A stretch of DNA of 64,000 nt from Solirubrobacterales bacterium (lineage in GTDB: Bacteria > Actinomycetota > Thermoleophilia > Solirubrobacterales > 70-9), in NCBI GenBank assembly GCA_033856515.1, contig JAWVEY010000008.1:52818-116817 (forward strand). Reading direction: 5' to 3'. The translations under genes and the position numbers were made by a program. The notes beneath the pieces were generated by a model. It searched no databases, was not told where the DNA came from, and saw nothing but the letters and a program-made list of their open reading frames with translations. Positions 1-12,561 of the stretch are shown here, piece by piece (positions within the stretch are counted from its first letter, which is position 1; each line of letters starts with the position of its first letter).

Positions 1-188
1 AGGGCGATCGATTCGGTCTCGCGGAGTGCGAGCTCTTCCATGCGGGCGATTTCAGCGCGGCGAGCCTGAAGCTCGTCCACGGGGTTGCCATCGGTTGCGG
101 GTGTCGTAGGTACTGCAGCGGCGCTAGGCGCGAGCCCCCCGGCCTCGTCGTCGCGGCGCCAACCGAAGCGTTGCGCGCGTTGTCCCAT
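1..188 (-). CDS. hypothetical protein, N-terminal part only (runs off left edge)
   Basis: ATG at 188-186 with GGAGGTG about 8 nt upstream on the minus strand. Open frame MGQRAQRFGWRRDDEAGG...DELQARRAEIARMEELALRETES reaches position 1. No family recognised. Confidence 0.4.
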   Translation of the reverse strand, partial: MGQRAQRFGWRRDDEAGGLAPSAAAVPTTPATDGNPVDELQARRAEIARMEELALRETESIA

Positions 189-421
189 TTCGGTTTCACC
201 TCCACCCGCTCCGGCGAGAGCCGGCAGCGAGCGTGTCTGTAATCAGAATTCATGATGCGATTCAGTGGTTCGACTTCAAGATGCAGGCCTACATGGCCGC
301 TTCTCGCTATCCACCGATGGTAAACCCGAGCGCAAGGGCGAGGGCGCCCACGTGTGCCCGGTGACCGCGATCTATCTCCCAAGCGGTAGCCAGGCGCCCT
401 GTCGCATGTAACAATTCAGAC

Positions 422-679
422 ATGGCGTATCCCCCGTTGTGGCAGCCCGACGCGCGGCAACCTCACAGCGCATCGCGCGACTGGAGAGGGCTACTGGGCT
501 CTGGCGTCGCTGGCTTACTCACGCTGGCGATGGTCATGCTCGTCATCGCAATGATCTGGTTCTTGGTGATGGTTTTCACCGCAGACGATGACGGCCAATC
601 GGGTCCTCCACGCGGGCTCACCGGGGCGCCTGCGGGCGAGCAAGGGATCGGCCAAGCGATCCGGTCCGAGAGCCGTTAG
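422..679 (+). CDS. small hypothetical membrane protein (85 aa)
   Basis: ORF with a hydrophobic segment (LLGSGVAGLLTLAMVMLVIAMIWFLVMVF). No SD; an AACAAT-like hexamer lies 6 nt before the ATG. TAG stop 8 nt before hairpin repeat 1. Confidence 0.3.
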   Translation: MAYPPLWQPDARQPHSASRDWRGLLGSGVAGLLTLAMVMLVIAMIWFLVMVFTADDDGQSGPPRGLTGAPAGEQGIGQAIRSESR

Positions 680-685
680 GACCTG

Positions 686-711
686 TGGCGCTTTTCGTCC
701 AAAGCACTACG
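686..711 (-). repeat. stop-flanked hairpin repeat, copy 1
   Basis: Plus strand tGGCGCTTTTCGTCCAAAGCACTACg. Minus strand CGTAG-TGCTTT-GGACGA-AAAGCGCC. Lies ~55 nt 3' of the DsrE-like stop. Confidence 0.8.
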
Positions 712-767
712 TTGGCTTTCGCCCCCTCATCAGGAACGAAGCCGCCCACCCGCCTGAAACGGAGCGC

Positions 768-1058
768 TCAGTAAGTCAGCGTGGTGTCGGCCGCGGTCGC
801 GAGCTCGACCAGCTTCTGGGGCTGTGCCGGTTCCGCGCCAGCGGCGCCCACATCTACTCCCCGCGCCTTGCTCGACATGCCTGAGGCGTAGATCGGAACA
901 TGTGCCTTACGCAACGCGCTCAAGTGCTCTTCGAAGGCACCGGTCCCAACTCCGTGTGTTGCGGCTGCGGTTTCAGGTCGCAATAGCTGCACTGCGTCGC
1001 CCGCCAGGAAAACGCTTACATCGTGACCCTCGGATGCGGCCGTCTTTGCGATGAGCAT
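768..1058 (-). CDS. DsrE/DsrF-like sulfur-relay family protein
   Basis: 96-aa ORF with GHDVSVFLAGDAVQLL and YASGMSSKARG, typical of DsrE/YchN-like proteins. Family-like sequence (IATLLVHLATGPENPTRAALA) continues in frame upstream to ~1121 without ATG/GTG/TTG, so the start is uncertain. Confidence 0.6.
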   Translation of the reverse strand: MLIAKTAASEGHDVSVFLAGDAVQLLRPETAAATHGVGTGAFEEHLSALRKAHVPIYASGMSSKARGVDVGAAGAEPAQPQKLVELATAADTTLTY

Positions 1059-1148
1059 TGCCAGTGCCGCTCTCGTGGGGTTTTCTGGACCGGTTGCCAG
1101 GTGAACGAGGAGAGTTGCGATGGCGCAACCCTACCTGCGAAACGACAT

Positions 1149-1173
1149 AAGTGCTATTCGTCCAAAGCGTCTA
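1149..1173 (-). repeat. stop-flanked hairpin repeat, copy 2
   Basis: Plus strand AAGTGCTATTCGTCCAAAGCGTCTA. Directly abuts the cupin TAG stop (1174-1176), giving TAGTAG-ACGCTTTGGACGAATAGCAC on the minus strand. Confidence 0.8.
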
Positions 1174-1581
1174 CTAAAGCCAGGTGATCCCAGCTTGCTC
1201 CGACGCCTCGGCATATGCGTCGGGCCCGAGCCTGCCATCTTGATCGGCTTGGGCTAGATCTCGGAAGAACTGCTCGAAACCGCCTGGCGTAAGGACGACT
1301 AGCTCCCGTCCCTCGCCCGGGACGACACGGCGCTGAGCGTGAGGAACCCCGCGAGGCAGAAAAATCGCATCCCCGGGCCCAAGCCGAAACTCTTCTTCGC
1401 CCCGGGTGACGATGTGCTCACCCTCCAAGATGTAGAAGAGCTCATCTTCATGAGTGTGCACGTGTAGCGGGGTATCAAGCATCGGCTGACCCTCTTCGAG
1501 GATCGTGATTGCGCCGCCCGAATCCTCCGAGCTTGTCTTAACCAGGATCGTTGTCTCGCCGAAGGTGAGCTTCTCCGCCAC
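1174..1581 (-). CDS. cupin domain protein
   Basis: Cupin motifs HVHTHEDELFYILEGE and GDAIFLPRGVPH. The track ORF (to 1776) reads through hairpin copy 3, so it was trimmed to the in-frame GTG at 1581, which has TAGATT 7 nt upstream. Confidence 0.7.
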   Translation of the reverse strand: MAEKLTFGETTILVKTSSEDSGGAITILEEGQPMLDTPLHVHTHEDELFYILEGEHIVTRGEEEFRLGPGDAIFLPRGVPHAQRRVVPGEGRELVVLTPGGFEQFFRDLAQADQDGRLGPDAYAEASEQAGITWL

Positions 1582-1624
1582 GCCGGAAAATCTATGGGAG
1601 AGCGCCCCACCGTGCCAGCGCCTT

Positions 1625-1650
1625 GGGTGCTTCTCGTCCAAAGCGACTAC
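1625..1650 (-). repeat. stop-flanked hairpin repeat, copy 3
   Basis: Plus strand GGGTGCTTCTCGTCCAAAGCGACTAC. Minus strand GTAG-TCGCTTTGGACGAGAAGCACCC. Lies between the GNAT stop and the cupin start. Confidence 0.8.
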
Positions 1651-1739
1651 TCCGGCAGCCCGGCGGCTTGTACGGAACCAAGGAGGCGTTACCGGGGCGA
1701 GATTGCACGCTACGTCTACGCGGGTTGGCGCGAGGCTGC

Positions 1740-2300
1740 TTACGCCCGCACGTCGTCGGAAAGAATCGCGAAACACACCTGATCCAGGCGGCCTGTTGGG
1801 GTTTTCTCGAGGCCCCGCAGGACCCCCTCCCGTTTCAGGCCGGCTCTCTCCATCGATCGCTGGGCACCGACGTTGTCGACGCCGGTGAGTCCATAGATGC
1901 GTTCGAGCCCAAGATCCTGGAATGCAAATGAAAGCGTCAGCTCCAAGGCGCGTCGGCTCAGGCCACAGCCGCGCGACCTGGGTGCAATCCAGAAGCCTAG
2001 CTCCGCGGTGCGCTCATCCCAGTCGATGTCGAAGAGCATCGTCTGACCCGAGAGCTGGACAGCCTCAGGCTCCCAGACGCCGAGTAGTACGCCGTCACCA
2101 GCCTCCATGCGTTCGCTGTTTCGCTGAACATAGGGGCGGAGGGCCTCGTCGGTCGCGGCCAATTGTCCGTGATAGGCGCCCTGTGCGATGGCCGGGTCCT
2201 TGAATGCTTTGACGAACGCGGGGGTGTCGTCTTCGGTAATTGAACGAAGCTCAATCGATCCATCCCCCACACCCGCCCGTGGCAGGGCGATGCTTGGCAT
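1740..2300 (-). CDS. GNAT family N-acetyltransferase (RimJ/RimL-like)
   Basis: IELRSITEDD...GFWIAPRSRGCGLSRRAL...ENVGAQRSMERAGLKREGVLR is typical of GNAT. Start set at MPSIALPR; an upstream ATG at 2411 is an alternative. Confidence 0.75.
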   Translation of the reverse strand: MPSIALPRAGVGDGSIELRSITEDDTPAFVKAFKDPAIAQGAYHGQLAATDEALRPYVQRNSERMEAGDGVLLGVWEPEAVQLSGQTMLFDIDWDERTAELGFWIAPRSRGCGLSRRALELTLSFAFQDLGLERIYGLTGVDNVGAQRSMERAGLKREGVLRGLEKTPTGRLDQVCFAILSDDVRA

Positions 2301-2481
2301 TGACGGCGAGCATATCCCGGCCCCGCCGCCCAGGTTGCGCTCAAACGCTGCCGGTCCAAACGCGCATGAGCCTTGAGCTGGCCTCAGATAAACCAGTGGG
2401 GGGCCCCGCATAGGTCTTCGGCAGCGCAGCTATAGAGAAGTCGACCGCTGCCCAGCCCATACGGCGGAGACAAAACCATAT

Positions 2482-2529
2482 GACGTCTCATCTAAAGCGA
2501 CTTAGACGCTTTTCGTCCAAAGCACCTAA
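2482..2529 (-). repeat. stop-flanked hairpin repeats, tandem pair 4a/4b
   Basis: Plus strand GACGTCTCATCTAAAGCGACTTA + GACGCTTTTCGTCCAAAGCACCTAA. Unit 4b has outer arms CTTAG/CTAAG. Ends ~12 nt 3' of the stop at 2542. Confidence 0.8.
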
Positions 2530-2541
2530 GTCGAGGCTTGC

Positions 2542-3144
2542 TTATGAAATAGAGCAGTTCTCGCGGCCGAAGCCGAAAGCCGTTTCATGGGTGGTCGGCA
2601 CCTTGGAGTGCACCTGGACCGTGACCGCAACACATGTGTTCGCTTCGAAGCGGAAGCCGCCGAGAAACGGCGTCCGCCGTCCGACGCGACGGTCGCTCAC
2701 CTTGTGGTCGGGGTTGCATGGCTCAAACCGGATTGCCTCTCCGTGAGCCTCGAAGCCCCCTTGTGGTCCGCGTTGGTCGAGGCCGACGCTGAGTTCGAGA
2801 TTTCTACCCTCCGGCGAGGCAACCGTGATTGTGACCGGATTCGGAGCATCCACAAAGATGGGTGTCTTCAGTCGGTGCGGGCCCTTACGGGCGGGGAAGC
2901 GGTTGTCTGCCCATTGTTTCGCTCCGAGAAACATCACAGGTCCTGCGAACGCGCTGACCTCACGCACCTCAGGGGAAATCCGACCGGGGTGGTTCTTCGG
3001 CGGGTAAACCTGGAGCCGCGACTGGCAGTCCACGGTCGGCGGCGAATCCGGTCCCTTAGCTGCTGCTCCCCCTCGTGCGAAGAGCAGAACCGCCGCCACG
3101 ACAACAACGAAAGTTGGAAAGGCGAGTCGCCCCCGCGAACTCAT
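2542..3144 (-). CDS. hypothetical secreted/membrane-anchored protein
   Basis: ORF with N-terminal hydrophobic segment (LAFPTFVVVVAAVLLFARGGAAA). Start placed at MSSRGRL to avoid overlap with the upstream gene. No family recognised. Confidence 0.5.
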   Translation of the reverse strand: MSSRGRLAFPTFVVVVAAVLLFARGGAAAKGPDSPPTVDCQSRLQVYPPKNHPGRISPEVREVSAFAGPVMFLGAKQWADNRFPARKGPHRLKTPIFVDAPNPVTITVASPEGRNLELSVGLDQRGPQGGFEAHGEAIRFEPCNPDHKVSDRRVGRRTPFLGGFRFEANTCVAVTVQVHSKVPTTHETAFGFGRENCSIS

Positions 3145-3175
3145 CTGATCAGAGTAATCCCGCACGGACTGCTGG

Positions 3176-3673
3176 TCAACCCCAGCCGGCATTGAGGCCG
3201 ATTTCAAGCTCGGTCGTCCTCATCTCTCCGTCGGCGTGGTCGACCCAAAGCGTCACCACCGTTGAAACGTGTTCACGACCGATCCACCGCCCATTGCTCG
3301 CGTCGGGGCTGAGCTCAAGAGACCCATCCAAGAGGCCCGCCGGTTGCAAGTAGCCCGTGAAATCGCGGCCTTGGCTGAGATCGTTCTCTTTCAGTTCGAA
3401 ATCACGCCCGTCGATCTGAGCCTCAACCCGCTGGGCAGGTTCTCGCAGATAGATGGCGAGGCCGATGCGATCGCATGCGAAGTGATTTGGGGTGCGGCAC
3501 GCGACTCCCATATAGGGCTTCCGCCTTATTAGGTCATCCGCGTCGACCGCTGTTGCGTTGGGCTGCTCCCCTGGGGTCGTCGGCTCGTCAACTTGGTCGG
3601 CGTTCCCGCCCCCGCAACCCGCCGTCGCGATAAAAGGCAAGACAGCCAAGAGAACGAAACGTCTGGTGGTCAC
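3176..3673 (-). CDS. hypothetical lipoprotein
   Basis: GTG start. Lipobox-like signal MTTRRFVLLAVLPFIATAGC followed by GGG. No family recognised. Confidence 0.6.
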   Translation of the reverse strand: MTTRRFVLLAVLPFIATAGCGGGNADQVDEPTTPGEQPNATAVDADDLIRRKPYMGVACRTPNHFACDRIGLAIYLREPAQRVEAQIDGRDFELKENDLSQGRDFTGYLQPAGLLDGSLELSPDASNGRWIGREHVSTVVTLWVDHADGEMRTTELEIGLNAGWG

Positions 3674-3763
3674 AGCGTCTTAAATACGGCGCAGGGAGGC
3701 TTAGAAGTCCACCGGATGCAGACCTTAAATAGGCACTAGTGCCCGAAACCGCTTAACGGCTTA

Positions 3764-3787
3764 GGTGCTTTTCGTCCAAAGCGCTAC
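3764..3787 (-). repeat. stop-flanked hairpin repeat, copy 5
   Basis: Plus strand GGTGCTTTTCGTCCAAAGCGCTAC, preceded by CTTA. Minus strand GTAG-CGCTTTGGACGAAAAGCACC. Lies 8 nt 3' of the SnoaL-1 TAG stop. Confidence 0.8.
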
Positions 3788-3794
3788 TTCTGAG

Positions 3795-4211
3795 CTACTC
3801 CGCCTGACCGCCGGCTTCAAGAGCCTTCTTCCGGTCGATGTACGTTTCGACCCGCACGACCTCTCCTCCGCGCAGCGTGCAGATCTGTGCGAGTTCAAGC
3901 TCCGCCGCCGCCCCACTACTCACGCCTCGGCCCCGTTGGCGCGACAAGGCGATCACCTGATCCCCGTGGTCGATCAGCTCGTCGACTGCAACCTCCCACT
4001 CCTCGAAGGGAAACGACCCGAACCAATCCTCTTCGAAGAATGCCCTGATCTGGTCGTGCCCGCGATAGACGCCGAGCCCTGCAATGTCGCTCAGGGAGAA
4101 GTCGAAAACGATCTCAGGCGCCCAGATGCCTGCGCTGATGACCGCCTGGGGTCCACCGGCGTTGAACAACTCGTAGCCTCGACGGATTAGCTCGACGTTC
4201 TCCTGAGACAT
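3795..4211 (-). CDS. NTF2/SnoaL-like (ketosteroid isomerase-like) protein, paralogue 1
   Basis: MSQENVELIRRGYELFNAGG... is a typical SnoaL-like N-terminus and the size (138 aa) fits. Paralogous to 10748-11152 and 11216-11638. Confidence 0.75.
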   Translation of the reverse strand: MSQENVELIRRGYELFNAGGPQAVISAGIWAPEIVFDFSLSDIAGLGVYRGHDQIRAFFEEDWFGSFPFEEWEVAVDELIDHGDQVIALSRQRGRGVSSGAAAELELAQICTLRGGEVVRVETYIDRKKALEAGGQAE

Positions 4212-4242
4212 CGCCCGCGCAGTATCGCGCGATCAAGAGGTA

Positions 4243-4264
4243 GATGCTTTCCATGCAAAGCGTC
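4243..4264 (-). repeat. hairpin repeat, loop variant (CCATGC), copy 6
   Basis: Plus strand GATGCTTTCCATGCAAAGCGTC. Lies ~32-53 nt upstream of the SnoaL-1 ATG. The same variant occurs upstream of SnoaL-3. Confidence 0.7.
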
Positions 4265-4338
4265 TTTCTAGCTCGTGTGTACAAAACGTTTCGCTGAGCG
4301 GGAGCGGATGAACACAGGCGACATGATCTGCCGCCTAG

Positions 4339-4356
4339 GCGATTTGCAAAGCACCT
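4339..4356 (-). repeat. possible decayed hairpin repeat just 3' of recX
   Basis: Plus strand GGCGATTTGCAAAGCACC keeps the GCG.TTT...AAAGCAC arms but the loop is collapsed. Lies 13 nt 3' of the recX TGA. Confidence 0.35.
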
Positions 4357-4368
4357 TTCTTGAGGCGC

Positions 4369-4830
4369 TCAGGCTGCGCGACGCTCGGCGAGCCGCACCG
4401 CCGCGTAGGCGACCTCGAGCTCGTACCCGCGGCGCGCAAGGAAAGCGAGCGCTCGGCCCCGCCCAGAGTCGTCGTCGAGGTCGTCGTTTCGCCGATCGAG
4501 CAGGTCTGCTGCCCGCTCAGCGAGCTCATCCTGGCTCTCCCCGCCCGCCGCCGCCTCGGCGATGGAGCGGGCCACGCCCTTCTCGACGAGCGCCTCGCGG
4601 ATCCTGCCCGGGCCCCAGCCGTTGAGCTCGCGCTTGTCCTGCGCGAAGAGCGAGGCGTAGCGCTCGTCGTCCAGCTGGCCGATCTCGACGAGGCGCTCAA
4701 TGGCCTCCTCGGCCTCGGCCGGGTCCGCCTCGCGCTTGGCCAGCCAGGCGCGCAACTCCGCGACCGTGTGCTCCCGGCGCGAGAGCGCTCGGAGCGATAA
4801 CTCGAAAGCGCTCTTCTTTCGCCCAGCCAT
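4369..4830 (-). CDS. recX: recombination regulator RecX
   Basis: Immediately downstream of recA. Repeated helical modules (VAELRAWLAKREADPAEAEEAIERLVEIGQLDDERYA) are typical of RecX. Confidence 0.85.
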   Translation of the reverse strand: MAGRKKSAFELSLRALSRREHTVAELRAWLAKREADPAEAEEAIERLVEIGQLDDERYASLFAQDKRELNGWGPGRIREALVEKGVARSIAEAAAGGESQDELAERAADLLDRRNDDLDDDSGRGRALAFLARRGYELEVAYAAVRLAERRAA

Positions 4831-4848
4831 GGACGCAGCCCGCGTGGG

Positions 4849-5985
4849 CTACGCCGCTTGGCGCTCGGGCTCGGCGTCCTCGTCGGCGACCGCGGCCGGA
4901 GCTTCCTCGCCGGCATCGGGCGCGTCGGGTACCGCCGCGATCGGGCGCGGGGCGCGATCGATCTCGAGGAGCGAGAAGATCTTCGTCTCGATCTCCTGCG
5001 CCAGCTCGGGGTTCTCGGCCAGATAGCCCTTGGTGTTGTTCCGCCCCTGGCCGAGCCTGAGCTCGCCGTAGGAGAAGAAGGAACCGGACTTCTGGATCAG
5101 GTCGTGCTCGAGCGCGAGGTCGAGGAGACAGCCCTCGTGAGAGATGCCCACGCCGTACTCGATGTCGAACTCGGCCTGGCGGAACGGCGGCGCGACCTTG
5201 TTCTTCACGACCTTGATGCGGACCCTGTTGCCGACCGCCTCGGTGCCCTCCTTGAGGGTCTCGATGCGGCGGATGTCGAGGCGCTGCGACGAGTAGAACT
5301 TGAGCGCCCGGCCACCCGGCTGCGTCTCGGGCGAGCCGAAGGTGACGCCGATCTTCTCGCGGATCTGGTTCGTGAACAGGCAGACGGTGTTGGCGCGGTT
5401 GAGGTTGCCCGCGAGCTTTCGCATCGCCTGGGACATCATTCGCGCCTGGAGGCCGACCGACTGGTCGCCCATCTGGCCCTCCAGCTCGACGCGCGGGGTC
5501 AGCGCCGCAACGGAGTCGATGGCGATGACGTCGACCGCGCCCGAGCGCACCAGGACGTCGACGATCTCGAGCGCCTGCTCCCCATAGTCCGGCTGGGAGA
5601 TCAGAAGCTCGTCCGTGTTGAGCCCGATGCGGCGGGCATAGACCGGGTCGAGGGCGTGCTCAGCGTCGATGAACGCGCAGACGCCACCCCGGGCCTGGGC
5701 CTCGGCCATGATGTGGTAGACGAGCGTCGTCTTGCCCGACGACTCCGGGCCGAAGATCTCGATCACGCGGCCGCGCGGGACGCCGCCGACGCCTAGCGCC
5801 AAGTCGAGCGATAGGGCCCCAGTGGGGATCGCCTCGACCGAGAGGGCGTTGTCGTCGCTCAAAGTCATCAGCGAGCCGGCGCCGAACTCCTTCTCGATGT
5901 GGATCTTGGCGGCGTCGAGCGCGGCCGTGCGGGCCTTCGCTTCCTTCTCCGCCGCCTTCTGGTCTGCCTTCGTTTGTTCAGCCAT
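4849..5985 (-). CDS. recA: recombinase RecA
   Basis: Walker [28 protein letters not shown]; full-length RecA with an acidic C-terminal tail. Confidence 0.98.
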
Positions 5986-5994
5986 CTCTACGAG

Positions 5995-6579
5995 TCACCT
6001 CAAGTCAATGTTGTGGATCGGCACGTACTGCGAGCCATCGCGCCGCATCATCGAACGGTAAAGAGAGAGTCGGACAGCAAGGAACTCGCCCCCCAACTCC
6101 TCGGGGAGCGGGCCAGGAGCCCGTCTGACGCGCTCTGGGCGCCTCCGGCGTTGTCCGCCCTTCCCCCTCCCCGCACGCACGCGAGCGACCGTCAGGTGCG
6201 GCCAGAACGGGCGCTTTTCGTCCTTCGCGAGGCCGAGCTCACGGAACGCGGCGCTGACCTCCAGCGCGAGCTCTACCGCCCCAGGCGTCACCGCCTCGAC
6301 GGCGAAGAGCGAAGGTCGCCGGGGTGGCTTTGCGACTACGTCTCTCTCCAGCCGGATCGGCACGGGTCGCGGTGTGACCGCCGCGACGACCTCGGTCGCT
6401 TCGGAGAGCCGGTCCGGCGGGGTCCAGCCCAGAAAGCAAAGGGTCATGTGGAGGTTTGCGGTCGGGACCGGCCGTAACGCTGGATCGGTCAGTTCCCGCG
6501 AGCCCCACGCTTCAAGGCCACCTCTGATCACGTCCGGCAGGTCGATTGCGGCGAAGAGGCGAACGGCCTTATCGCTCAC
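5995..6579 (-). CDS. thpR: RNA 2',3'-cyclic phosphodiesterase (2'-5' RNA ligase family, ThpR/LigT)
   Basis: Two HxT/S motifs of the 2H phosphoesterase fold (HMTLCFLG and HLTVARV). Size 194 aa. Confidence 0.8.
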   Translation of the reverse strand: MSDKAVRLFAAIDLPDVIRGGLEAWGSRELTDPALRPVPTANLHMTLCFLGWTPPDRLSEATEVVAAVTPRPVPIRLERDVVAKPPRRPSLFAVEAVTPGAVELALEVSAAFRELGLAKDEKRPFWPHLTVARVRAGRGKGGQRRRRPERVRRAPGPLPEELGGEFLAVRLSLYRSMMRRDGSQYVPIHNIDLR

Positions 6580-6582
6580 CGC

Positions 6583-7683
6583 CTACCCCACCTCGCGCAA
6601 GAAGCCCACGAGGTCCCGGGCGAGGAGCTCAGGCTCCTCCCAAGCCGCGAAGTGGCCGCCGCGCTCGTGCTCGGTCCACTGGCGGAGATCGCCGAGCGTG
6701 CGCTCGGCCCACTCGCGCGGCGGGTGGAGGATCTCCTGCGGGAAGTCCGCGACGGCGGCCGGAACGCTGATCTTCTCCCCCGCGCCGAGCTTCCAGCGGT
6801 CGCGAGCCTCGGCCGCATACAGGCGGATCGAGGTCGAGATCGTGCCCGTCGCCCAGTAGATCGTCAGGAAGTCGCAGAGCTGGTCGAGCGTGAAGCGCGT
6901 CTCGACGTCGCCTCCGCAGTCGGACCAGTCGCGGTATTTCGAGACGAGCCACGCCGCGAGGCCGGCTGGCGAGTCGTTGAGCGCGGGCGCGAGCGTGTCG
7001 GGGACGCCGCCCTGCGTGAGCATGTAGTGGGCACCGCGCGTGCGCCACTTGATGGCCTTTGCCAGCCACGCTTGCTCGGCATCCGTCAAGTCCGATCGGT
7101 CCGCGGGGAACGGCAGCACGGATGGGGAGTTGATGTGGAGCGCCGAGACACGCTCGGGCGAGTCGTAGGCCATCCGCGCCGCGATGAGCGTTCCCCAGTC
7201 GCCGCCCTGGACGACGTAGCGCTCGATGCCGAGGCCGTCCTCGACGAGCGCGCGAAGGCGTGCGGCCATGCCCGAGCCGTTTAGCGGCTCATCCGGCGCA
7301 TCCGAGAAGCCATAGCCGGGAAGTGACGGCGCGATGACCTCGTGTCCCGCCTCGACGAGAAGCGGGATCAGGCGCTCGAACTCCAGCACCGCTCCCGGCC
7401 ATCCGTGCACGAGCACGATCGGCGGGCCGGTCTCCTCCCCCGCCCGGATGAAGTGAACGCCCTCCCATATCCCTTGCTCGAACTCGTTCAGCCGGCTCTC
7501 AGACGCCCGCCAGTCATAGTCGGAGGCCCAGTGCTCACACAGGCGCCGCAGGAATCCCTGGTCCATCCCGTACTCCCAGCCGATGTCAGCAGCTTCAGGC
7601 CAGCGGGTTCGCTCCAAGCGCCCGCGGAGGTCGTCGAGGATCGCCTCATCGACCGAGATCTCGTAGGCGGACGGCTTCGCCAA
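6583..7683 (-). CDS. epoxide hydrolase (alpha/beta hydrolase with N-terminal EHN domain)
   Basis: N-terminal ISVDEAILDDLRGRLERTRWP, HGWPG oxyanion motif, GGDWG nucleophile elbow. Confidence 0.8.
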   Translation of the reverse strand: MAKPSAYEISVDEAILDDLRGRLERTRWPEAADIGWEYGMDQGFLRRLCEHWASDYDWRASESRLNEFEQGIWEGVHFIRAGEETGPPIVLVHGWPGAVLEFERLIPLLVEAGHEVIAPSLPGYGFSDAPDEPLNGSGMAARLRALVEDGLGIERYVVQGGDWGTLIAARMAYDSPERVSALHINSPSVLPFPADRSDLTDAEQAWLAKAIKWRTRGAHYMLTQGGVPDTLAPALNDSPAGLAAWLVSKYRDWSDCGGDVETRFTLDQLCDFLTIYWATGTISTSIRLYAAEARDRWKLGAGEKISVPAAVADFPQEILHPPREWAERTLGDLRQWTEHERGGHFAAWEEPELLARDLVGFLREVG

Positions 7684-7687
7684 GGCG

Positions 7688-8995
7688 CTAAAGCGGGAAG
7701 TCCTCGCCCAGGAGGAGGCGCCGAGTCAGGTGCATCGCGAGGAGCGCCGAGCGCTCACGCACGTCCGCTCGCGTCCCTGGCATGACGGGATCGCGGGCGA
7801 TCATCTGCCCGTCAGCGGTCTTTACGCACACGCAGACGTAGCCGACGGGCTTCTCCTCGGTGCCACCCGAGGGCCCGGCGATGCCCGTGATGCCGACGGC
7901 GATGTCCGCGTCGTACTGCTCGAGCGCGCCGTCAGCCATCGCCTCCGCGACCTCGGGCGAGACGGCTCCGTGCTCGGCGATCCGCTCGGCCGGAACGCCC
8001 AGCACCTTGGTCTTCGACTCGTTCGTGTAGGTCACCGCGCCACCCATGACGTACGCAGAGGCTCCATCGAGCTCCGTCAGGCGAGCCGCGAGAAGCCCGC
8101 CGGTGCAAGACTCGGCCGTCGCGATCCGATGCCCCGCGAGGAGGTTCGCCAGCTGCGAATCGATCGTCTCGCCGTCGCGGCTGAAGAGGAACCGGCCGTG
8201 ACGCTTGTCGATGCCCGCAATCAGCTGCGCGAGCGCCTCCTCGGCACCCGGGCGGTGGCGCACTTCGATCTCGAGCTCCCCCTTGCGGAGGCAGGTGGTG
8301 ATCTCGAGCTGGTCGATTGCAACGCCCTCGTCCTCGATCTCGCGAAGGCTCTTGGCGATCTCGGACTCGGGAATGCCGAAGAGGCGCAGCATCACGCCCA
8401 AGTACGGCTCGGCCCGTTCCAAGACGGTGCGGACGAGGTCCGTCGCGACCGCCTTTGGCCACATTGCGTGAAGCTCGCGTGGCGGCCCCGGCATCACGAC
8501 CACGACGGGCCCATCGTCGACAGGGACGACCAGCCCGGGCGCGGTGCCCGCCGGGTCGATGAGCGTGGAGCCCTTGGGCACCACGGCCTGCTTCCGGTTC
8601 GCCTCGCGTAGCGCCTCCGGATCGAAATTGAGCCGGCGAGCGAAGCTCGCGAGGATCTTCGCGATCTTCTCCTCCATGCCCTCGTCGAGCACCATCTCGC
8701 GCCCGGCGAACTTGCCTACGACCTGCGCGGTGAGGTCGTCAGCCGTAGGCCCCAGGCCTCCGCTGGTGACGATCAGGTCCATGCCGTCATCGCCAAGGAA
8801 CCGGAGGGCCTGTTCGAGGTCTGACGGCCGGTCGCCGACGACGACGATGTGGGAGACCTCCACCCCGCGCCCGGCGAGCTCCTGCGAGATCCACGGCCCG
8901 TTCTTGTCCTGGATCGTGCCTGTGATGACCTCCGTGCCGGTCACGACGATCCCCGCGCGCACGGGTTTGACGTCAGCTTCACTCACGGCGCCCAC
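7688..8995 (-). CDS. cinA: competence/damage-inducible protein CinA (MoCF-binding + nicotinamide-nucleotide amidase domains)
   Basis: N-terminal GIVVTGTEVITGTIQDKNG...TSGGLGPTADD and C-terminal PncC-like ESCTGGLLAARLT. Confidence 0.9.
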   Translation of the reverse strand: MGAVSEADVKPVRAGIVVTGTEVITGTIQDKNGPWISQELAGRGVEVSHIVVVGDRPSDLEQALRFLGDDGMDLIVTSGGLGPTADDLTAQVVGKFAGREMVLDEGMEEKIAKILASFARRLNFDPEALREANRKQAVVPKGSTLIDPAGTAPGLVVPVDDGPVVVVMPGPPRELHAMWPKAVATDLVRTVLERAEPYLGVMLRLFGIPESEIAKSLREIEDEGVAIDQLEITTCLRKGELEIEVRHRPGAEEALAQLIAGIDKRHGRFLFSRDGETIDSQLANLLAGHRIATAESCTGGLLAARLTELDGASAYVMGGAVTYTNESKTKVLGVPAERIAEHGAVSPEVAEAMADGALEQYDADIAVGITGIAGPSGGTEEKPVGYVCVCVKTADGQMIARDPVMPGTRADVRERSALLAMHLTRRLLLGEDFPL

Positions 8996-9025
8996 TCTAC
9001 GGAGGGCTCACCGCGGCGCGAGGGC

Positions 9026-10039
9026 TCAGGGCGCGATACCGAGACCTAGCGGGTTGTCGAAGCCGGATCCGTTCACGAGGGTCAGGTCCCCGTTCTTCAA
9101 GTTGACCTCGTAGAGCTCCGCGGGAAACACCCTGGTGACGTATGCCGTCTGCTTGTTCGCCACCGCCAGGCCAGCGGGCACGACACCGCTGCTCTTGAAG
9201 ATCGTCTTTGCTTTCCCGGTGTCGAGGTCGACTCGGAACATCGCGCCGGTGTAGTTGAACGCTCCGCTGTCGATCACCACGGCGCTGTGCTTGCTCTCGG
9301 AATCGACGTCCCCGAGGTCCTCGAGGTCGGGGAAGTCGCCCTTGCCTGCAATCACCTTCTGCTTCCCCGAGCTCAGGTCTACCTGGATCAGGCCGCCTCT
9401 GAGTCTGAGGTTGCTCTTGCTGCTGCCGGCGTCGGCGACGAGCGCATTTGACAAGCCGGTGTCGATGCCAAGCGGGTCGCCGATGTTCTTCCCGCCGCTG
9501 AGGAGCGACTGCTTGCCGGTCGTGAGGTTCACTTTGACCACGCGCGAGGGCTTGCCGCCAAAGTCGGTCACGTAGGCGTTGTTGCCCTTGCAGTCGATCG
9601 CGATCGGGTCAGCGAAGCGCTCCTCTCCACCGGCGGCGTCCGATATCGCGTTGTTGGAAACGACGGACTGGGCGCCGGTGATCTTGTCGATGCGGATCAC
9701 GCCCCCGTCGTCGCCGAACGCATCGCGGTCAACGACGAGGATGTTGCCGTCACCGTCGAATGCGATGCCCGCGGGGAACACGAAATTACCGCCGGTTGAT
9801 ACAGGGACCTTGACCCCGGTTTCGGGGTTGACAGCTTCGACCTGCTGGTCCAGAGAATCGGCGACGATGATGTCGCCTGAGTTCCAGAATGCGGGCGCGC
9901 CCTGGCTCGTGCTGGGCCCCCAGATCACCGCAACTCCGAGCGCGAAAACCAGCCCCGCGATCAGCTTCCCCTTGCCCTTGCGCGCCGTCCCTGTCATCAA
10001 GCCCTCCGTTGCTTTCGATCCACGCTGAACTCGGAGCAT
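9026..10039 (-). CDS. secreted beta-propeller (NHL-like repeat) protein
   Basis: Signal-like N-terminus (KLIAGLVFALGVAVIWG) and recurring blade-like segments (PAGIAFDGDGNILVVD, PIAIDCKGNNAYVTD, PLGIDTGLSNALVAD). Confidence 0.6.
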   Translation of the reverse strand: MLRVQRGSKATEGLMTGTARKGKGKLIAGLVFALGVAVIWGPSTSQGAPAFWNSGDIIVADSLDQQVEAVNPETGVKVPVSTGGNFVFPAGIAFDGDGNILVVDRDAFGDDGGVIRIDKITGAQSVVSNNAISDAAGGEERFADPIAIDCKGNNAYVTDFGGKPSRVVKVNLTTGKQSLLSGGKNIGDPLGIDTGLSNALVADAGSSKSNLRLRGGLIQVDLSSGKQKVIAGKGDFPDLEDLGDVDSESKHSAVVIDSGAFNYTGAMFRVDLDTGKAKTIFKSSGVVPAGLAVANKQTAYVTRVFPAELYEVNLKNGDLTLVNGSGFDNPLGLGIAP

Positions 10040-10046
10040 AAACCCC

Positions 10047-10556
10047 CTAGCTCAGGCGGCTCCGAGAGACGCTGAGCTCAGGCGATGCTGAGAGCGTCTG
10101 CAGAACGACGCAGTAGCGCTCGGTCAGTTTGATGAGCGTGTCGAGTTGCTCCTCGTCGGCATCCGTTTCGAGCTCGAACGCAAGCGAGATGGCCGAGAAG
10201 CCCACGGCCGCCTCGCGGTCGACTGCAAGAGTGCCCCTGAAGTCAAGGACGCCGTCCGCCTTGACCGTCCCACCCTCCACCGGGATCTCGAGCGATGTAG
10301 CAACGGAGCGAAGCGTCACACCCGCGCAGGCAGCCAGGGCCTCGAGCAGCATGTCGCCGGAGCACAACTGGGTCCCGTCGCCGCCCGTCGCGGGGTGAAG
10401 CCCGGCCTCCGCGATCGCGCGCCCGGTCTCGACGGAGCAGGAGATCCCCTCGCCCAGCGAGGCCTTTGCCGAAAGCGTGATCAAAGCGGCGTCCGGGTCT
10501 TCCTTGTAGCGCTCCTTGAGCGGCGCCTGTTTTTCCTGAAGCTCTGCTCGGTTCAA
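10047..10556 (-). CDS. OsmC family peroxiredoxin-like protein
   Basis: CSGDMLLEALAACAG and the C-terminal TERYCVV motif are typical of OsmC/Ohr. The track ORF was trimmed to the in-frame TTG at 10556, which has GAGAGGG upstream. Confidence 0.75.
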   Translation of the reverse strand: MNRAELQEKQAPLKERYKEDPDAALITLSAKASLGEGISCSVETGRAIAEAGLHPATGGDGTQLCSGDMLLEALAACAGVTLRSVATSLEIPVEGGTVKADGVLDFRGTLAVDREAAVGFSAISLAFELETDADEEQLDTLIKLTERYCVVLQTLSASPELSVSRSRLS

Positions 10557-10615
10557 AGTTCTCAGCCCTCTCGAGTCGTGAGCACCCCACGGTAGCCGCG
10601 CGATAATCCTCAGGG

Positions 10616-10702
10616 ATGCCCGAGAGGAACGTCGAGACAATTCGCGAGATCTACGCGCGCTGGGGCGAAGAGGCGCTCGCAGCAATCGGCCTCGCGAACT
10701 AG
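10616..10702 (+). pseudogene. 5' fragment of a SnoaL-like gene, inverted relative to its paralogues, truncated at the hairpin repeat
   Basis: ATG..TAG encodes MPERNVETIREIYARWGEEALAAIGLAN. The first ~16 aa match the N-termini of the three SnoaL paralogues. GATAAT lies 8 nt before the ATG, as in the paralogues. The TAG is the CTAG edge of repeat 7a. Confidence 0.5.
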
Positions 10703-10750
10703 GCGCTTCTCATCCGAAGCGGACTAGCGCTTTTTCGTCCAAAGCACCTA
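10700..10750 (-). repeat. stop-flanked hairpin repeats, tandem pair 7a/7b
   Basis: Plus strand TAGGCGCTTCTCATCCGAAGCGGACTA + GCGCTTTTTCGTCCAAAGCACCTA. Unit 7a has stem GCTTC/GAAGC (a paired change). CTA 10748-10750 is the SnoaL-2 stop codon. Confidence 0.8.
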
Positions 10751-11152
10751 GTTCGATAGTCCCGCCGCTTCAATGGCCTTCGCTACGTCCGTAGTAATGA
10801 GGAGGTGCTCGATTTGGTCACCCCGAAATCGGGCGACTGCCGCGGCCTCGACGTCAAACGGAACGCCGCTTCCCCGTCCGCGGCCCCGGAAGCGGCCGAC
10901 GGCAAGGACGCAGTCGCCAACGTCGCGAAACTGCTCGGCCGACGCGGTCATGGAGTCCCAACTGTCATCCAATGCCGCAAGCCACTCTGCAGCTGCGTCG
11001 CGGCCCGCGTAGGCGGTATTACCTTCCAGTGCCGCTCGTATCGGAACGATCTCGACGTTGGGCGCAAGAAGCATCTCGAGCGCCTCTAGGTCGCGGCGGT
11101 TGACTGCCTCGATGACAGCACGCAGCCTTTCAACGTTCCCATCTGGCATCAC
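10748..11152 (-). CDS. NTF2/SnoaL-like protein, paralogue 2
   Basis: (V)MPDGNVERLRAVIEAVNRRDLEAL... is SnoaL-like. The start is GTG 11152 or ATG 11149. Confidence 0.7.
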   Translation of the reverse strand: MMPDGNVERLRAVIEAVNRRDLEALEMLLAPNVEIVPIRAALEGNTAYAGRDAAAEWLAALDDSWDSMTASAEQFRDVGDCVLAVGRFRGRGRGSGVPFDVEAAAVARFRGDQIEHLLITTDVAKAIEAAGLSN

Positions 11153-11194
11153 CCGGCAGTATCACTCAAGAACAGTCGCTTTCGATAGGGAATA

Positions 11195-11218
11195 AACGCT
11201 TCTCGTCCAAAGCGCCTA
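11195..11218 (-). repeat. stop-flanked hairpin repeat, copy 8
   Basis: Plus strand AACGCTTCTCGTCCAAAGCGCCTA. CTA 11216-11218 is the SnoaL-3 stop codon. Minus strand GTAG-GCGCTTTGGACGAGAAGCGTT. Confidence 0.8.
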
Positions 11219-11638
11219 CTCCAAGAGCCCGGAGGCGTCGAGGGCGGCTGTCTGCCTCGGATAGAACTTCCAACGAGACATCAGACCCGCTTTGAAGGTG
11301 GCGACCTGCGCGTATTTCCCCCCGACCACCTCGATACCCGAGGAAAGCCCACGCATGGTCTGATCGAGCAGCATGACCACTCGATCACCGGCGTCGAGGA
11401 GCTCGTAGGCGAACTCGCTGGTTTCCCAAGCGCCGAGCCAGTTCCGCCAAAACGCGCTCACCTCTTCCTTGCCCCGATAGATGCCAGCCAGGCCCGGCAC
11501 GCCGAGTTCAGAGGCATCCCATTCGATTTCCGGGTCCCAGAGCGCGGTCGCCCTGGTGAGCCAGCCCTCCCAATCGGACCCGCTCGCGAGGAAGTCCTCG
11601 ATGGAGGCCCGCCACAGTTCCACGTTCTCTTCCGACAT
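11216..11638 (-). CDS. NTF2/SnoaL-like protein, paralogue 3
   Basis: MSEENVELWRASIEDFLASG... Its N-terminus and 5' leader are near-identical to paralogue 1. Confidence 0.75.
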   Translation of the reverse strand: MSEENVELWRASIEDFLASGSDWEGWLTRATALWDPEIEWDASELGVPGLAGIYRGKEEVSAFWRNWLGAWETSEFAYELLDAGDRVVMLLDQTMRGLSSGIEVVGGKYAQVATFKAGLMSRWKFYPRQTAALDASGLLE

Positions 11639-11671
11639 CGCCCGCGCAGTATCTCGCGACTCAGAGACTTA

Positions 11672-11696
11672 TGTGCTTTCCATGCAAAGCGCCTAT
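11672..11696 (-). repeat. hairpin repeat, loop variant (CCATGC), copy 9
   Basis: Plus strand TGTGCTTTCCATGCAAAGCGCCTAT. Lies ~34-58 nt upstream of the SnoaL-3 ATG. Confidence 0.7.
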
Positions 11697-11746
11697 AGCC
11701 GAGCTTTCCTCGCGGTCCGTACGTCGCGAGCGTAAGGTTCGCGCTG

Positions 11747-12430
11747 ATGCCCGATCCCACCGCCGGCCCGAAGGCGCAGAGCGCACCCGAGCTGAAAGCC
11801 CAGATCGAGGCCGAGCGCGAAGGGCGTCCGTTTCTCGTCTACCGCGATGGCGCCGGCCAGCAGGTGATCCTCCCGATCCAAGAGGGGGCCACCGAGCTGT
11901 GGGTGGGCCGGCGCGAGGTGGCCGACATCCGCCTCGACTTCGACGAGGAGGTCTCGGGCCTCCACGCCCAGATCGAGTTCGTCGGCGGTGACGGCACGCT
12001 CGTGGACGACGGCCTTTCGCGCAACGGCTCCTATGTCAACGGCGAGCGGGTCCGCGGCCGCAAGGTGCTCCGCGACGGCGACGTGATGCGCTTCGGGCGC
12101 TCCCTCGTGCTCTTTCGCGCGCCAGGTGGAGAAAGCGCCGAGGCCACCGTGATCTCGGCCGACCTCCTGGACGCCGGCGGCATCTCCCCCGCTCAGCGCC
12201 GCGTCCTAATCGCCCTCTGCCGCCCCTACAAGGACGGCGCGTCCTTTGCTACCCCGGCTTCCAACAGCCAGATCGGCGACGAGCTCCATCTGTCGGTCGA
12301 CGCCGTCAAGACCCATCTGCGAGCGCTGTTCGAGAAGTTCGACGTCACCGACCTGCCCCAGAACCGCAAGCGGGTGGCTCTCGTCGAACGCGCGCTGCAG
12401 ACCGGAATGGTCAGCGAGCGCGATCTGTAG
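11747..12430 (+). CDS. FHA domain / LuxR(GerE)-type HTH fusion regulator
   Basis: FHA core (WVGRREVADIRLDFDEEVSGLHAQIEF...GSYVNGERV...GDVMRFG) plus C-terminal HTH (SNSQIGDELHLSVDAVKTHLRALFEKF). Confidence 0.8.
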   Translation: MPDPTAGPKAQSAPELKAQIEAEREGRPFLVYRDGAGQQVILPIQEGATELWVGRREVADIRLDFDEEVSGLHAQIEFVGGDGTLVDDGLSRNGSYVNGERVRGRKVLRDGDVMRFGRSLVLFRAPGGESAEATVISADLLDAGGISPAQRRVLIALCRPYKDGASFATPASNSQIGDELHLSVDAVKTHLRALFEKFDVTDLPQNRKRVALVERALQTGMVSERDL

Positions 12431-12561
12431 GACCCCCACCAAGGGGTGAAAACGTTGCCACCCGGGGGTGCGCCGGTCCCGCCCGAGGGGGTCTACTAGT
12501 GGGCTTGTTTTGACCCGAAACTCGTTGTGTCGCATTCAACCCACAACGAAAGGACCACAAC

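Follow-up and report, generated by a model that had tools for sequence, protein, structure and literature searches.

A putative array of site-bounded single-gene cassettes between recX and rny in a Solirubrobacterales bacterium

The integron is the classic example of a device that captures single genes. Its attC sites measure about 57–141 nt and combine R''/L''-L'/R' boxes with a GTTRRRY core. More generally, the core sites of tyrosine recombinases consist of two arms of ~10 bp around a conserved, asymmetric 6-bp centre. Engineered cassette exchange, in which heterospecific lox or FRT sites are used, has shared arms with incompatible spacers as its design logic, and we know of no natural two-site cassette-exchange system of such kind. 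Solirubrobacterales are abundant, mostly uncultured soil bacteria. In one uncultured soil member of this order we analysed a 64-kb stretch of DNA (G000:C8:52818-116817, hereafter the window) from an assembly of 3.15 Mb with 66.8% GC, 77 contigs and an estimated completeness of 86.6%. The subject of this report is a 4.2-kb insertion (window 350–4368) between recX and rny, the RNase Y gene, which carries seven small genes with a low GC content at third codon positions (GC3) and is punctuated by two related imperfect palindromes of ~28 nt, termed type A and type B. Co-ordinates are window positions unless a contig is named, and the gene strand of the array is the minus strand.

Two described systems serve as the closest points of reference. 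Clusters of attC sites lacking an integron integrase (CALINs) were described by Cury et al. in 2016, and, in the portions of that paper available to us, all Actinobacteria genomes in their set were without complete integrons (PMC4889954). Acinetobacter plasmids carry plasmid dif (pdif) modules that are moved by XerC/XerD, as set out in the abstract-level text of four papers (PMC6449649, PMC7399989, PMC10132070 and PMC13141974). Among titles and abstract openings on integron-like cassettes or palindromes in Solirubrobacterales, Thermoleophilia and Actinobacteria, we found no description of the A and B sites.

A preliminary description of the window had pictured a string of small genes, each bounded by a hairpin, appended to recA-recX. 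Pfam matches and open reading frames (ORFs) placed the listed genes, from recA to the DsrE-like gene, in the same order on the minus strand (Table 1). The hairpins proved equally real. With up to one mismatch, the core TTCGTCCAAAGC occurred seven times in the 64-kb window as compared to 0.20 expected, and none of 100 shuffles reached seven; five copies lay in 686–3787, where they had been reported, and the others at 10734 and 11202. A 'loop variant' at 4241–4267 and two 'decayed' copies (4338–4360 and 2480–2502) were also present, and all three belong to a second site type, A, of which the two decayed copies are worn examples. Likewise, the perfect palindrome GGCACTAGTGCC noted in one spacer was found at 3732–3743, this being one of its two copies in the genome, and the reported absence of an integrase held, as the window encodes no tyrosine recombinase.

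Both site types span ~26–30 nt and consist of two inverted arms of ~10–11 bp (…YGCTTT / AAAGCR…) around an asymmetric 6-bp centre. The inner arms, GCTTT/AAAGC, are common to A and B, whereas the gene-strand centres differ, being GCATGG in A (CCATGC on the plus strand) and GGACGA in B. Type A, GCTTTGCATGGAAAGC, lies 5′ of genes, and type B, GCTTTGGACGA(A/G)AAGC, lies 3′ of genes. Genome-wide there were 186 GCTTT-N6-AAAGC-like matches; the centres GGACGA (n=18) and GCATGG (n=14) stood out, every other centre occurring at most three times, and a control with the reversed pattern gave no match in any genome. When two mismatches were allowed, G000 contained 55 sites in at least nine clusters, and the genomes of the genus held between 1 and 93 sites each. 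The outer arms read CTTAGGY in group g1 and ACYGCYGC in the sister genus g17; arms and centres are thus lineage-specific and uniform inside one genome. Repeats of the same pattern were also present in public metagenome-assembled genomes of Solirubrobacterales, Thermoleophilia and Actinomycetota. A 14-kb IMG/VR contig filed as viral (L173) carries the B-site pattern as well.

The two types follow a fixed syntax, which was assessed for co-oriented neighbouring sites. A B site followed by an A site was found at a distance of 7–9 nt in all six cases in G000, and such B-A junctions measured 7–10 nt across the data sets. By comparison, A-to-B distances in G000 exceeded 250 nt in 11 of 14 cases and B-to-B distances in 11 of 11, with a single A-to-A pair. 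In arrays of the g1 relatives, B-to-A was close in 9/12, A-to-B distant in 17/19 and B-to-B distant in 10/10 cases, and the corresponding values for g17 were 12/17, 23/23 and 8/8. Neighbouring sites were co-oriented, with three orientation flips per data set. Furthermore, the first site of an array is a lone A just past the stop codon of a core gene, for instance recX or ndk, and the last is a lone B. Because of this site spacing, together with the lone-A starts and lone-B ends, we read the repeating unit as A-(promoter)-gene-B.

The sites behave as if they were conserved at the DNA level. Beyond the consensus itself, the arms showed no compensatory changes; scores for true and for shuffled pairing lay within error of each other in 8/8 group-by-type comparisons, and there was no excess of G·T pairs on either strand. 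Predicted RNA folding energies of the window copies ranged from −1.6 to −16.3 kcal/mol without a strand preference. The 6-nt centres were conserved while the stems drifted, so that sequence was better kept than pairing. The sites were restricted to low-GC3 accessory genes, and none was located behind core and highly expressed genes; with our crude gene calls, the median GC3 was 0.76 for genes upstream of B as compared to a genome median of 0.847. These calls were made with a GC3-based ORF picker, and start codons and some neighbour distances are approximate. Drift without compensation, the lack of strand bias, the avoidance of core genes and the arm-centre-arm layout would together favour DNA sites over RNA hairpins. 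Nor did the sites resemble intrinsic terminators, as the inner stem is AU-rich, no T-run follows B and the sites occur at accessory genes only.

The gaps of ~20–90 nt reported between each hairpin and the next start do exist, and they could be described more precisely: most hold a −10-like TANNNT hexamer 6–9 nt before the start and no Shine-Dalgarno sequence. This applies to the SnoaL, cupin and DsrE starts, and one such hexamer is conserved in five cupin orthologues. Ahead of SnoaL genes the A site lies ~45 nt before the start in a module that consists of A, CTAYCTC, ~8 nt, GCGAGATACT, 9 nt and ATG; on the 3′ side of the A site at 4241–4267 a conserved spacer leads to the −10-like GATACT (4221–4226), 9 nt before the SnoaL ATG. 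A hexamer-to-start geometry of this kind is that of leaderless actinobacterial promoters. The pattern suggests that the units carry their own leaderless-type promoters. In the DsrE-matching frame there is no ATG, GTG or TTG before residue 24, and the apparent start is an ATC 6 nt past TAGGGT (window 1119–1127). The orthologue in G017 has the identical ATC, and because the downstream changes relative to G017 are mostly synonymous, the stretch past the ATC is coding. The true start of the GNAT gene is uncertain, its Pfam match opening at ORF residue 53.

We compared the locus in 16 same-genus genomes, a set from which the unpublished genomes G006 and G015 were left out. The backbone recA-recX-[gap]-rny-...-miaB-...-dapF was conserved in 16/16. 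The recX-to-rny gap measured at most 352 bp in ten of these relatives and 1.0–3.65 kb in the other six, as compared to 4180 bp in G000; the six filled gaps carried differing genes, and several included A or B sites. None of the non-SnoaL genes of the array was found at the recX-rny locus of the 16 relatives, and this includes both genes of unit 2 as well as the convergent 85-aa ORF. Even close relatives differed in this respect: the RecA protein of G003 is 96% identical to that of G000 and its gap is an empty 168 bp, while G018, with 97% identity, has other genes in the gap. The A site past the recX stop, decayed in G000, was intact in G018, G010 and G014. At the far edge, ~155 nt upstream of rny are conserved in relatives, and in empty-site genomes this stretch begins ~30 nt past the recX stop. 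In G010 (L005), a 3.65-kb insertion is flanked by a 21-nt direct repeat (18/21) of the recX 3′ end including its stop codon, and this resembles the footprint of a founding site-specific insertion at the end of recX. Such a duplication at the far edge was clear in G010, partial in G005 and not convincing in G000. On contig C20, another G000 array is inserted over 5.8 kb between two genes, and the distance between these genes is 11–612 bp in 5/5 relatives. The comparison thus supports the view that the recX-rny locus is a hypervariable gene-insertion hotspot.

Single-gene units were also found to recur elsewhere and to be permuted, with homology ending in the repeats, which supports the proposal of a hairpin-bounded region of gene capture or shuffling. 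The DsrE unit (687–1168) is 83% identical to G017:C2:483607-484089, a different locus with unrelated flanks, and the homology ends in B sites in 4/4 cases. Between G063 and G128 (sister genus), two units of 817 and 508 bp are 96% identical; they lie side by side in one of the two genomes, and 7.4 kb separates them in the other. The neighbours of these loci are unrelated and there is no further similarity; 7/8 homology ends fall in A or B sites, and at this resolution identity sets in within the left arm of an A or B site and extends to the outer edge of the right B arm. In a second soil metagenome (X4) one contig joins 1170 to 1647, from one B site to another, and so skips the cupin unit; being a single contig obtained at 90% likeness, this is a weak hint. 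The read depth of X4 was 0 in the bin 1336–1602, gaps in the coverage of X3 and X4 at other positions were disregarded, and run X2 has an array identical to that of G000. Other contig joints (1669 to 4191/4195, 2528 to 4241, and 4262 to 1626/688) were discarded as artefacts of paralogous SnoaL ends and of B-A junctions elsewhere.

SnoaL genes are prominent in this material. The unit 1 gene is one of 37 SnoaL paralogs in the genome, and a 75%-identical copy is present at a different locus in G009. The possibility that the hairpins are mere untranslated regions of the SnoaL family was rejected, as a 3′ B site accompanies only 8/37 SnoaL ORFs and an upstream site 12/37. B sites behind unrelated genes (window 1647–1672 and the L178/L179 cassette) carry a remnant of a SnoaL C-terminus, ..AGL.E*, CGGAGTAG, and the 57-nt stretch 1613–1669 matches many copies of a SnoaL 3′ end plus B in other genomes at 88–95%. 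These remnants suggest that new units arise by ORF replacement inside a SnoaL cassette.

By a Pfam scan of the ORFs in the relatives' arrays, we identified a small tyrosine recombinase of 213–242 aa. It matched Phage_integrase (E=2e-30) over profile positions 8–167 of 172, with only the catalytic domain of Xer models being matched. The protein is devoid of an N-terminal core-binding domain; all NCBIfam matches fell below their cut-offs and, for Xer models, covered the C-terminal domain only. Its best solved relatives were the XerC-like 4a8e, XerA (5hxy) and XerD (1a0p). Alignment A2 displays LRISE, GKGGRRR, HQLRHAHA and LGH..TSIYL, which we take to be the catalytic R..K..HxxR..H/W..Y residues. 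An NCBIfam invertase model was matched over positions 10–171 of 198 with E=4.5e-17, which is below the cut-off, and the integron-integrase model gave 63 bits against a cut-off of 265 bits, with ~70 residues aligned.

The recombinase gene directly adjoins the sites. An inverted B core, which is the 3′ site of a convergent cassette, begins 1–3 nt past the recombinase stop codon in 8/8 copies from g1 and g17, and a B site also precedes the recombinase Shine-Dalgarno sequence in 7/8. The mutual homology of the recombinase units likewise ends in B sites. In G110 (g16), the centre GCGCGA occurs five times in 5.7 kb beside the recombinase, between the same arms GCTTT/AAAGC. Behind the family f4 copies, sites with this centre, reading TCGCGC, were recognised by eye. 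For the distant families f3 and f4, no recurring palindrome was detected beside the recombinase in 14 of 15 loci of 4.5–5.8 kb, G110 being the only one to have one. A census of 19 genus genomes, which here include the unpublished G006 and G015, showed the gene to be intact in G011, G009 and G012 and broken or fragmentary in G013, G015, G017 and G014; the highest site counts (G013 and G011) coincide with the most recombinase copies or fragments. In G128, a genome without the small recombinase, a gene for a 427-aa protein of the Phage_integrase family (L180 on G128:C2, 2510–3793) is ~0.7 kb away from the point where an A/B array begins.

The reading that we prefer, with a probability of roughly one half, is that 350–4368 represents an array of recombination-site-bounded gene cassettes between recX and rny, which in this genome lacks a recombinase. 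The underlying arrangement is confirmed, and the idea of gene capture and shuffling is supported by the genome comparisons; the proposed recombination mechanism and its enzyme are plausible. Each unit would comprise a short leaderless-type promoter, one gene (once two) and the flanking ~28-bp sites. The arms would bind the recombinase, the 6-bp centre would be the region of exchange, and single units could be excised, inserted or exchanged. The likely enzyme is the 213–242-aa Xer-like tyrosine recombinase, which always abuts a B site in the relatives' arrays. Because the arms are common and the centres different, A-A and B-B exchange would be allowed and A-B exchange would not; with A and B centres incompatible, a unit could therefore be exchanged without being lost. 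As G000 has the sites and no enzyme, its arrays, like attC clusters without an integrase, would be either inactive or acted upon in trans. A wider claim, that Thermoleophilia possess a natural cassette-exchange system with heterospecific A and B sites, a recombinase that excises, inserts, inverts and swaps genes, and new cassettes made by ORF replacement in a SnoaL 'chassis', that is, an independent platform analogous to the integron, is put forward as a tentative and less probable extension.

Several observations weigh against an array of recombining cassettes. We found no clean excised circle, empty junction or rearrangement within the population. Orthologues of a cupin gene on contig C55 occupy four other contexts without sites in four relatives, and this cupin was rejected as a site-bounded unit; SnoaL orthologues in G009 are also without sites, and a head-to-tail run of ~12 SnoaL_2 paralogs on C50 (C50:111739-116882) contains no A or B sites. 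The sites are therefore facultative, and small genes must also move by other means. Within the C50 run, stop and start codons abut and several genes retain the GATACT promoter-like module. As for the enzyme, no member of the recombinase family was found in the 86.6% complete G000 assembly, where PF00589 matched only two Xer-like genes, on C50 and C3, with 28–30% identity. It was also missing from 11 others of the 19 genus genomes, including near-complete ones with 20–34 sites, and at E≤1e-25 from G128, which has 26 exact B cores. Across 151 genomes of the order, the exact B core was present in 20 and the recombinase in 37, and both were present in 7 as compared to ~4.9 expected by chance, which is a weak link. 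Instead, the recombinase could be a mobile element in its own right and insert at B hairpins, or it could share a bidirectional terminator with the convergent gene. Moreover, for a recombinase that lacks a core-binding domain, the reading of 10-bp arms would be hard to account for.

If the cassette reading holds, this would be a second, independently evolved way to build arrays of exchangeable single genes, in a phylum reported, in the portions of the survey available to us, to be without integrons (PMC4889954). It would explain how accessory genes turn over at hotspots of fixed chromosomal position, the recX-rny gap being one, and it would provide a compact recombinase of ~220 aa together with a short pair of sites with shared arms and different centres, the property on which engineered cassette exchange relies. 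Should the mechanism prove to be homologous recombination via the conserved junctions, the A-gene-B syntax could still be used as a marker for accessory-gene arrays.

How does such an array compare with the known systems? As in integrons, in particular sedentary chromosomal ones, and in CALINs, the genes are co-oriented, promiscuous accessory genes, for the most part small and single, and behind each lies an imperfect palindrome that frequently extends over the stop codon. Repeats of one lineage resemble each other more than those of different lineages do, and a tyrosine recombinase is implicated and is missing from many arrays. Unlike in integrons, the array sites are ~28 nt long and of two types per unit (5′ and 3′), there is no attI/Pc platform and the units seem to carry promoters; the candidate recombinase of ~220 aa has no IntI-specific insertion and lies at the 3′ end of the array beside an inverted site. 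On reading the A and B sites we saw no GTTRRRY core. The integron layout that had been considered earlier was accordingly not upheld, there being neither IntI nor attC boxes, and the accompanying remark that the repeats are much shorter than attC sites (~26–30 nt against 57–141 nt) was correct.

The likeness to pdif modules, as far as the partial texts of the cited papers describe them, lies in small gene modules, in 28-bp sites built as arm, 6-bp centre and arm, in shuffling between replicons, in the lack of a recombinase in most modules and in the targeting of the sites by other mobile elements. The A and B sites differ from these in being direct rather than alternately inverted, in their chromosomal location in Solirubrobacterales, in having two centres on the same arms and in their association with a separate small recombinase. 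Identity with XerCD/dif sites was rejected, as the arms are unlike those of the candidate dif, CATAA-N6-TTATC. This latter motif is single-copy in 13 of the 19 genus genomes and, in the five genomes compared, shares a contig with recA and lies close to it. We infer that it is the candidate dif, which would place recA near the replication terminus. In G000 the only ATAA-N6-TTAT is CATAACCGTCATTATC at C8:29533-29548, ~23 kb before the window.

A further likeness is to engineered cassette exchange, in that a gene lies between two sites with identical arms and incompatible spacers. With regard to the shufflon invertase Rci and the FimB/FimE invertases, the candidate enzyme is near the size of these tyrosine invertases of ~200 aa; shufflon sites, however, are inverted and recombine gene segments rather than whole genes. 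The arrays appear to work most like integron/CALIN arrays and dif modules, and they are neither an integron, nor an array of dif modules, nor the repetitive extragenic palindromic (REP) sequences of a REP-associated tyrosine transposase (RAYT).

Among the alternatives, the best surviving one, which we nevertheless consider unlikely, is expression punctuation combined with homologous recombination. According to this explanation, B is a bidirectional terminator or insulator hairpin that contains a stop codon, A is an operator or upstream promoter element, both originally belonged to the SnoaL family, and the conserved B-A junctions of 40–75 nt are patches for RecA-dependent or transformation-derived exchange without a dedicated recombinase. 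Indeed, B and the stop codon of SnoaL genes overlap, the flanking CGGAGTAG coding for ..SE*. The extended B palindrome gives TAG whichever way it is read, and convergent genes, including the recombinase and the 85-aa ORF at 422–679, end right at B, which a shared bidirectional terminator would predict. The fixed distance of A from the −10-like GATACT and the ATG is equally in line with such a role, most site-bearing genomes are without the small recombinase, and the core flanks (recX/rny and those on C20) would permit the allelic replacement of whole islands. What this explanation does not predict is the absence of sites behind core and highly expressed genes, or their restriction to 20 of the 151 order genomes. 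No U-tract follows B, some window copies fold weakly (−1.6 and −4.9 kcal/mol), and the centres are conserved while the stems drift uncompensated. In the C50 run, ~12 SnoaL genes in tandem have retained the promoter and do without sites, and neither the B-to-A spacing of 7–10 nt nor the genus-specific, concerted changes of arms and centres would be needed for termination.

Somewhat less probable still is that A and B are selfish hairpin repeats, similar to REPs and bacterial interspersed mosaic elements (BIMEs), to miniature inverted-repeat transposable elements or to the hairpin ends of palindrome-associated transposable elements (PATEs) of the IS200/IS605 type, which would invade permissive intergenic regions, or bring passenger genes along, with the help of an enzyme for folded single strands, the cassette appearance being a by-product. 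Like REP/BIME sequences, the sites are short intergenic imperfect palindromes that occur in tens of copies (1–93 per genome), with a lineage consensus and decaying copies, and they cluster in accessory regions. The enzyme gene is bracketed by inverted copies, and low-copy genomes concentrate their sites at this one gene, as in G009, where three of seven sites flank the recombinase. In addition, the hairpins at both ends of a unit, with matching outer arms, could be viewed as terminal inverted repeats. The associated enzyme, however, is a tyrosine recombinase and not of the HUH/Y1 type, and the repeats bracket genes in a fixed 5′/3′ syntax. The single Y1_Tnp gene of G000 (C47:55133-55462), its only HUH/Y1 transposase gene, is bracketed by its own GGGGACWGTCCCC doublets (C47:55000-55610), and nhmmer detected no A or B sites nearby. 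This GGGGACWGTCCCC palindrome has 19 copies genome-wide. A and B never form alternating inverted pairs, and the few orientation flips, together with the A-5′/B-3′ rule, the lone-A starts and the lone-B ends, misfit the insertion of free-standing doublets. For the PATE version, too, there is no associated Y1 gene, and there is no strand asymmetry in G·T pairing that would point to one folded strand. Of the earlier idea of REP accumulation in a permissive intergenic zone, the permissive zone has thus stood, while the A-gene-B syntax, the homology at the level of units and the different REP of the RAYT speak against the accumulation.

Least of all do we favour an RNA-level regulon, in which mRNA hairpins would be bound or processed by an RNA-binding protein or an RNase and would co-regulate small stress and detoxification genes; this very improbable explanation would suit the strict co-orientation of the sites with the flanking genes, the conserved loops and the stress-type cargo, but if the −10-like hexamers are genuine, A would precede the likely start of transcription, neither a G·U strand bias nor compensatory change nor an Rfam match was seen, and hypervariable loci that are mobile unit by unit are not predicted.

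The features of the array and its surroundings are collected in Table 1. Across the arrays, small enzymes of the stress type are abundant among the cargo (SnoaL, cupin, GNAT, DsrE, glyoxalase, OsmC, MsrA and Usp).

Table 1. Features of the recX-rny insertion and its surroundings, listed from recA towards rny, with a second array of the window in the last row.
Feature	Window position	Strand	Evidence or remark
recA, core backbone	4849-5985	-	Pfam RecA E=7e-129; 83-97% identity across 16 same-genus loci
recX, core backbone	4369-4830	-	Pfam RecX_HTH1/2/3; kept in 16/16 loci; array starts past recX stop
Decayed type-A site, directly after recX stop	4336-4360	-	gene strand AAAGGTGCTTTGCAAATCGCCTAGG
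Dispersed structured repeat of ~50 nt, unrelated to A/B	4270-4321		nhmmer copy
Type-A site ('loop variant')	4241-4267, core 4246-4261	-	gene-strand core GCTTTGCATGGAAAGC
Unit 1, SnoaL_2/NTF2-like gene, MSQENVE...AG..E family	3795-4211	-	Pfam SnoaL_2 E=1e-11; GC3 0.76
Type-B site	3762-3787, core 3767-3782	-	gene-strand core GCTTTGGACGAAAAGC
Unit 2, two overlapping genes, no site between	2542-3673	-	ORF list; no Pfam family; GC3 0.70
Unit 2, lipoprotein-like gene	3176-3673	-	lipobox-like LPFIATAGC; no Pfam match
Unit 2, signal-anchored protein	2542-3144/3207	-	no Pfam match
B-A junction: B site (core 2508-2523), then decayed A site 2480-2502 on gene strand	2480-2530	-	
Unit 3, GNAT acetyltransferase	within 1740-2411	-	Pfam Acetyltransf_3 E=3e-19; GC3 0.70
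B site (core 1629-1644), preceded on gene strand by SnoaL C-terminus remnant (..QAAGLPE*)	1624-1672	-	sequence reading
Unit 4, cupin gene, GTG start 7 nt past hexamer TAGATT	1174-1581 (ORF 1174-1776)	-	Pfam Cupin_2 E=5e-14
B site, one arm mismatch	1148-1173, core 1153-1168	-	
Unit 5, DsrE-like gene	768-1121 (ORF 768-1130)	-	Pfam DsrE E=2e-14
Terminal B site of array	686-712, core 690-705	-	
Convergent 85-aa ORF, membrane helix, ends 7 nt from last B site, in inserted DNA	422-679	+	no Pfam match
Conserved rny promoter and leader, far edge of insertion (rny starts 188)	189-349	-	
Second, smaller array: A (core 11675-11690), SnoaL, B (core 11198-11213), SnoaL, B, B'	10694-11696	-	

The second, smaller array of the window is followed by an OsmC-like ORF (10047–10685). 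Besides A and B, a third dispersed repeat of ~50 nt occurs next to the first A site. An Rfam scan of window 1–12500, judged by E-value, gave no matches, neither for this repeat nor for the hairpins. Its consensus is CGTGTGTACCGAACGTTTCGCTGAGCGGGAGCGGATTACCACACG, and nhmmer gave 18 matches, corresponding to 17 distinct copies in either orientation, in G000 and the loci examined. Apart from the window copy on the plus strand (4270–4321), the G000 copies are located at C17:92577-92628, C4:84278-84319, C52:6237-6286, C3:158053-158100 and C20:121066-121097. In G000, G018, G005, G014, G017 and G012, the repeat often lies just after genes or at the entry points of arrays. Its inner hairpin, around CGC-TGA-GCG, displays compensatory changes.

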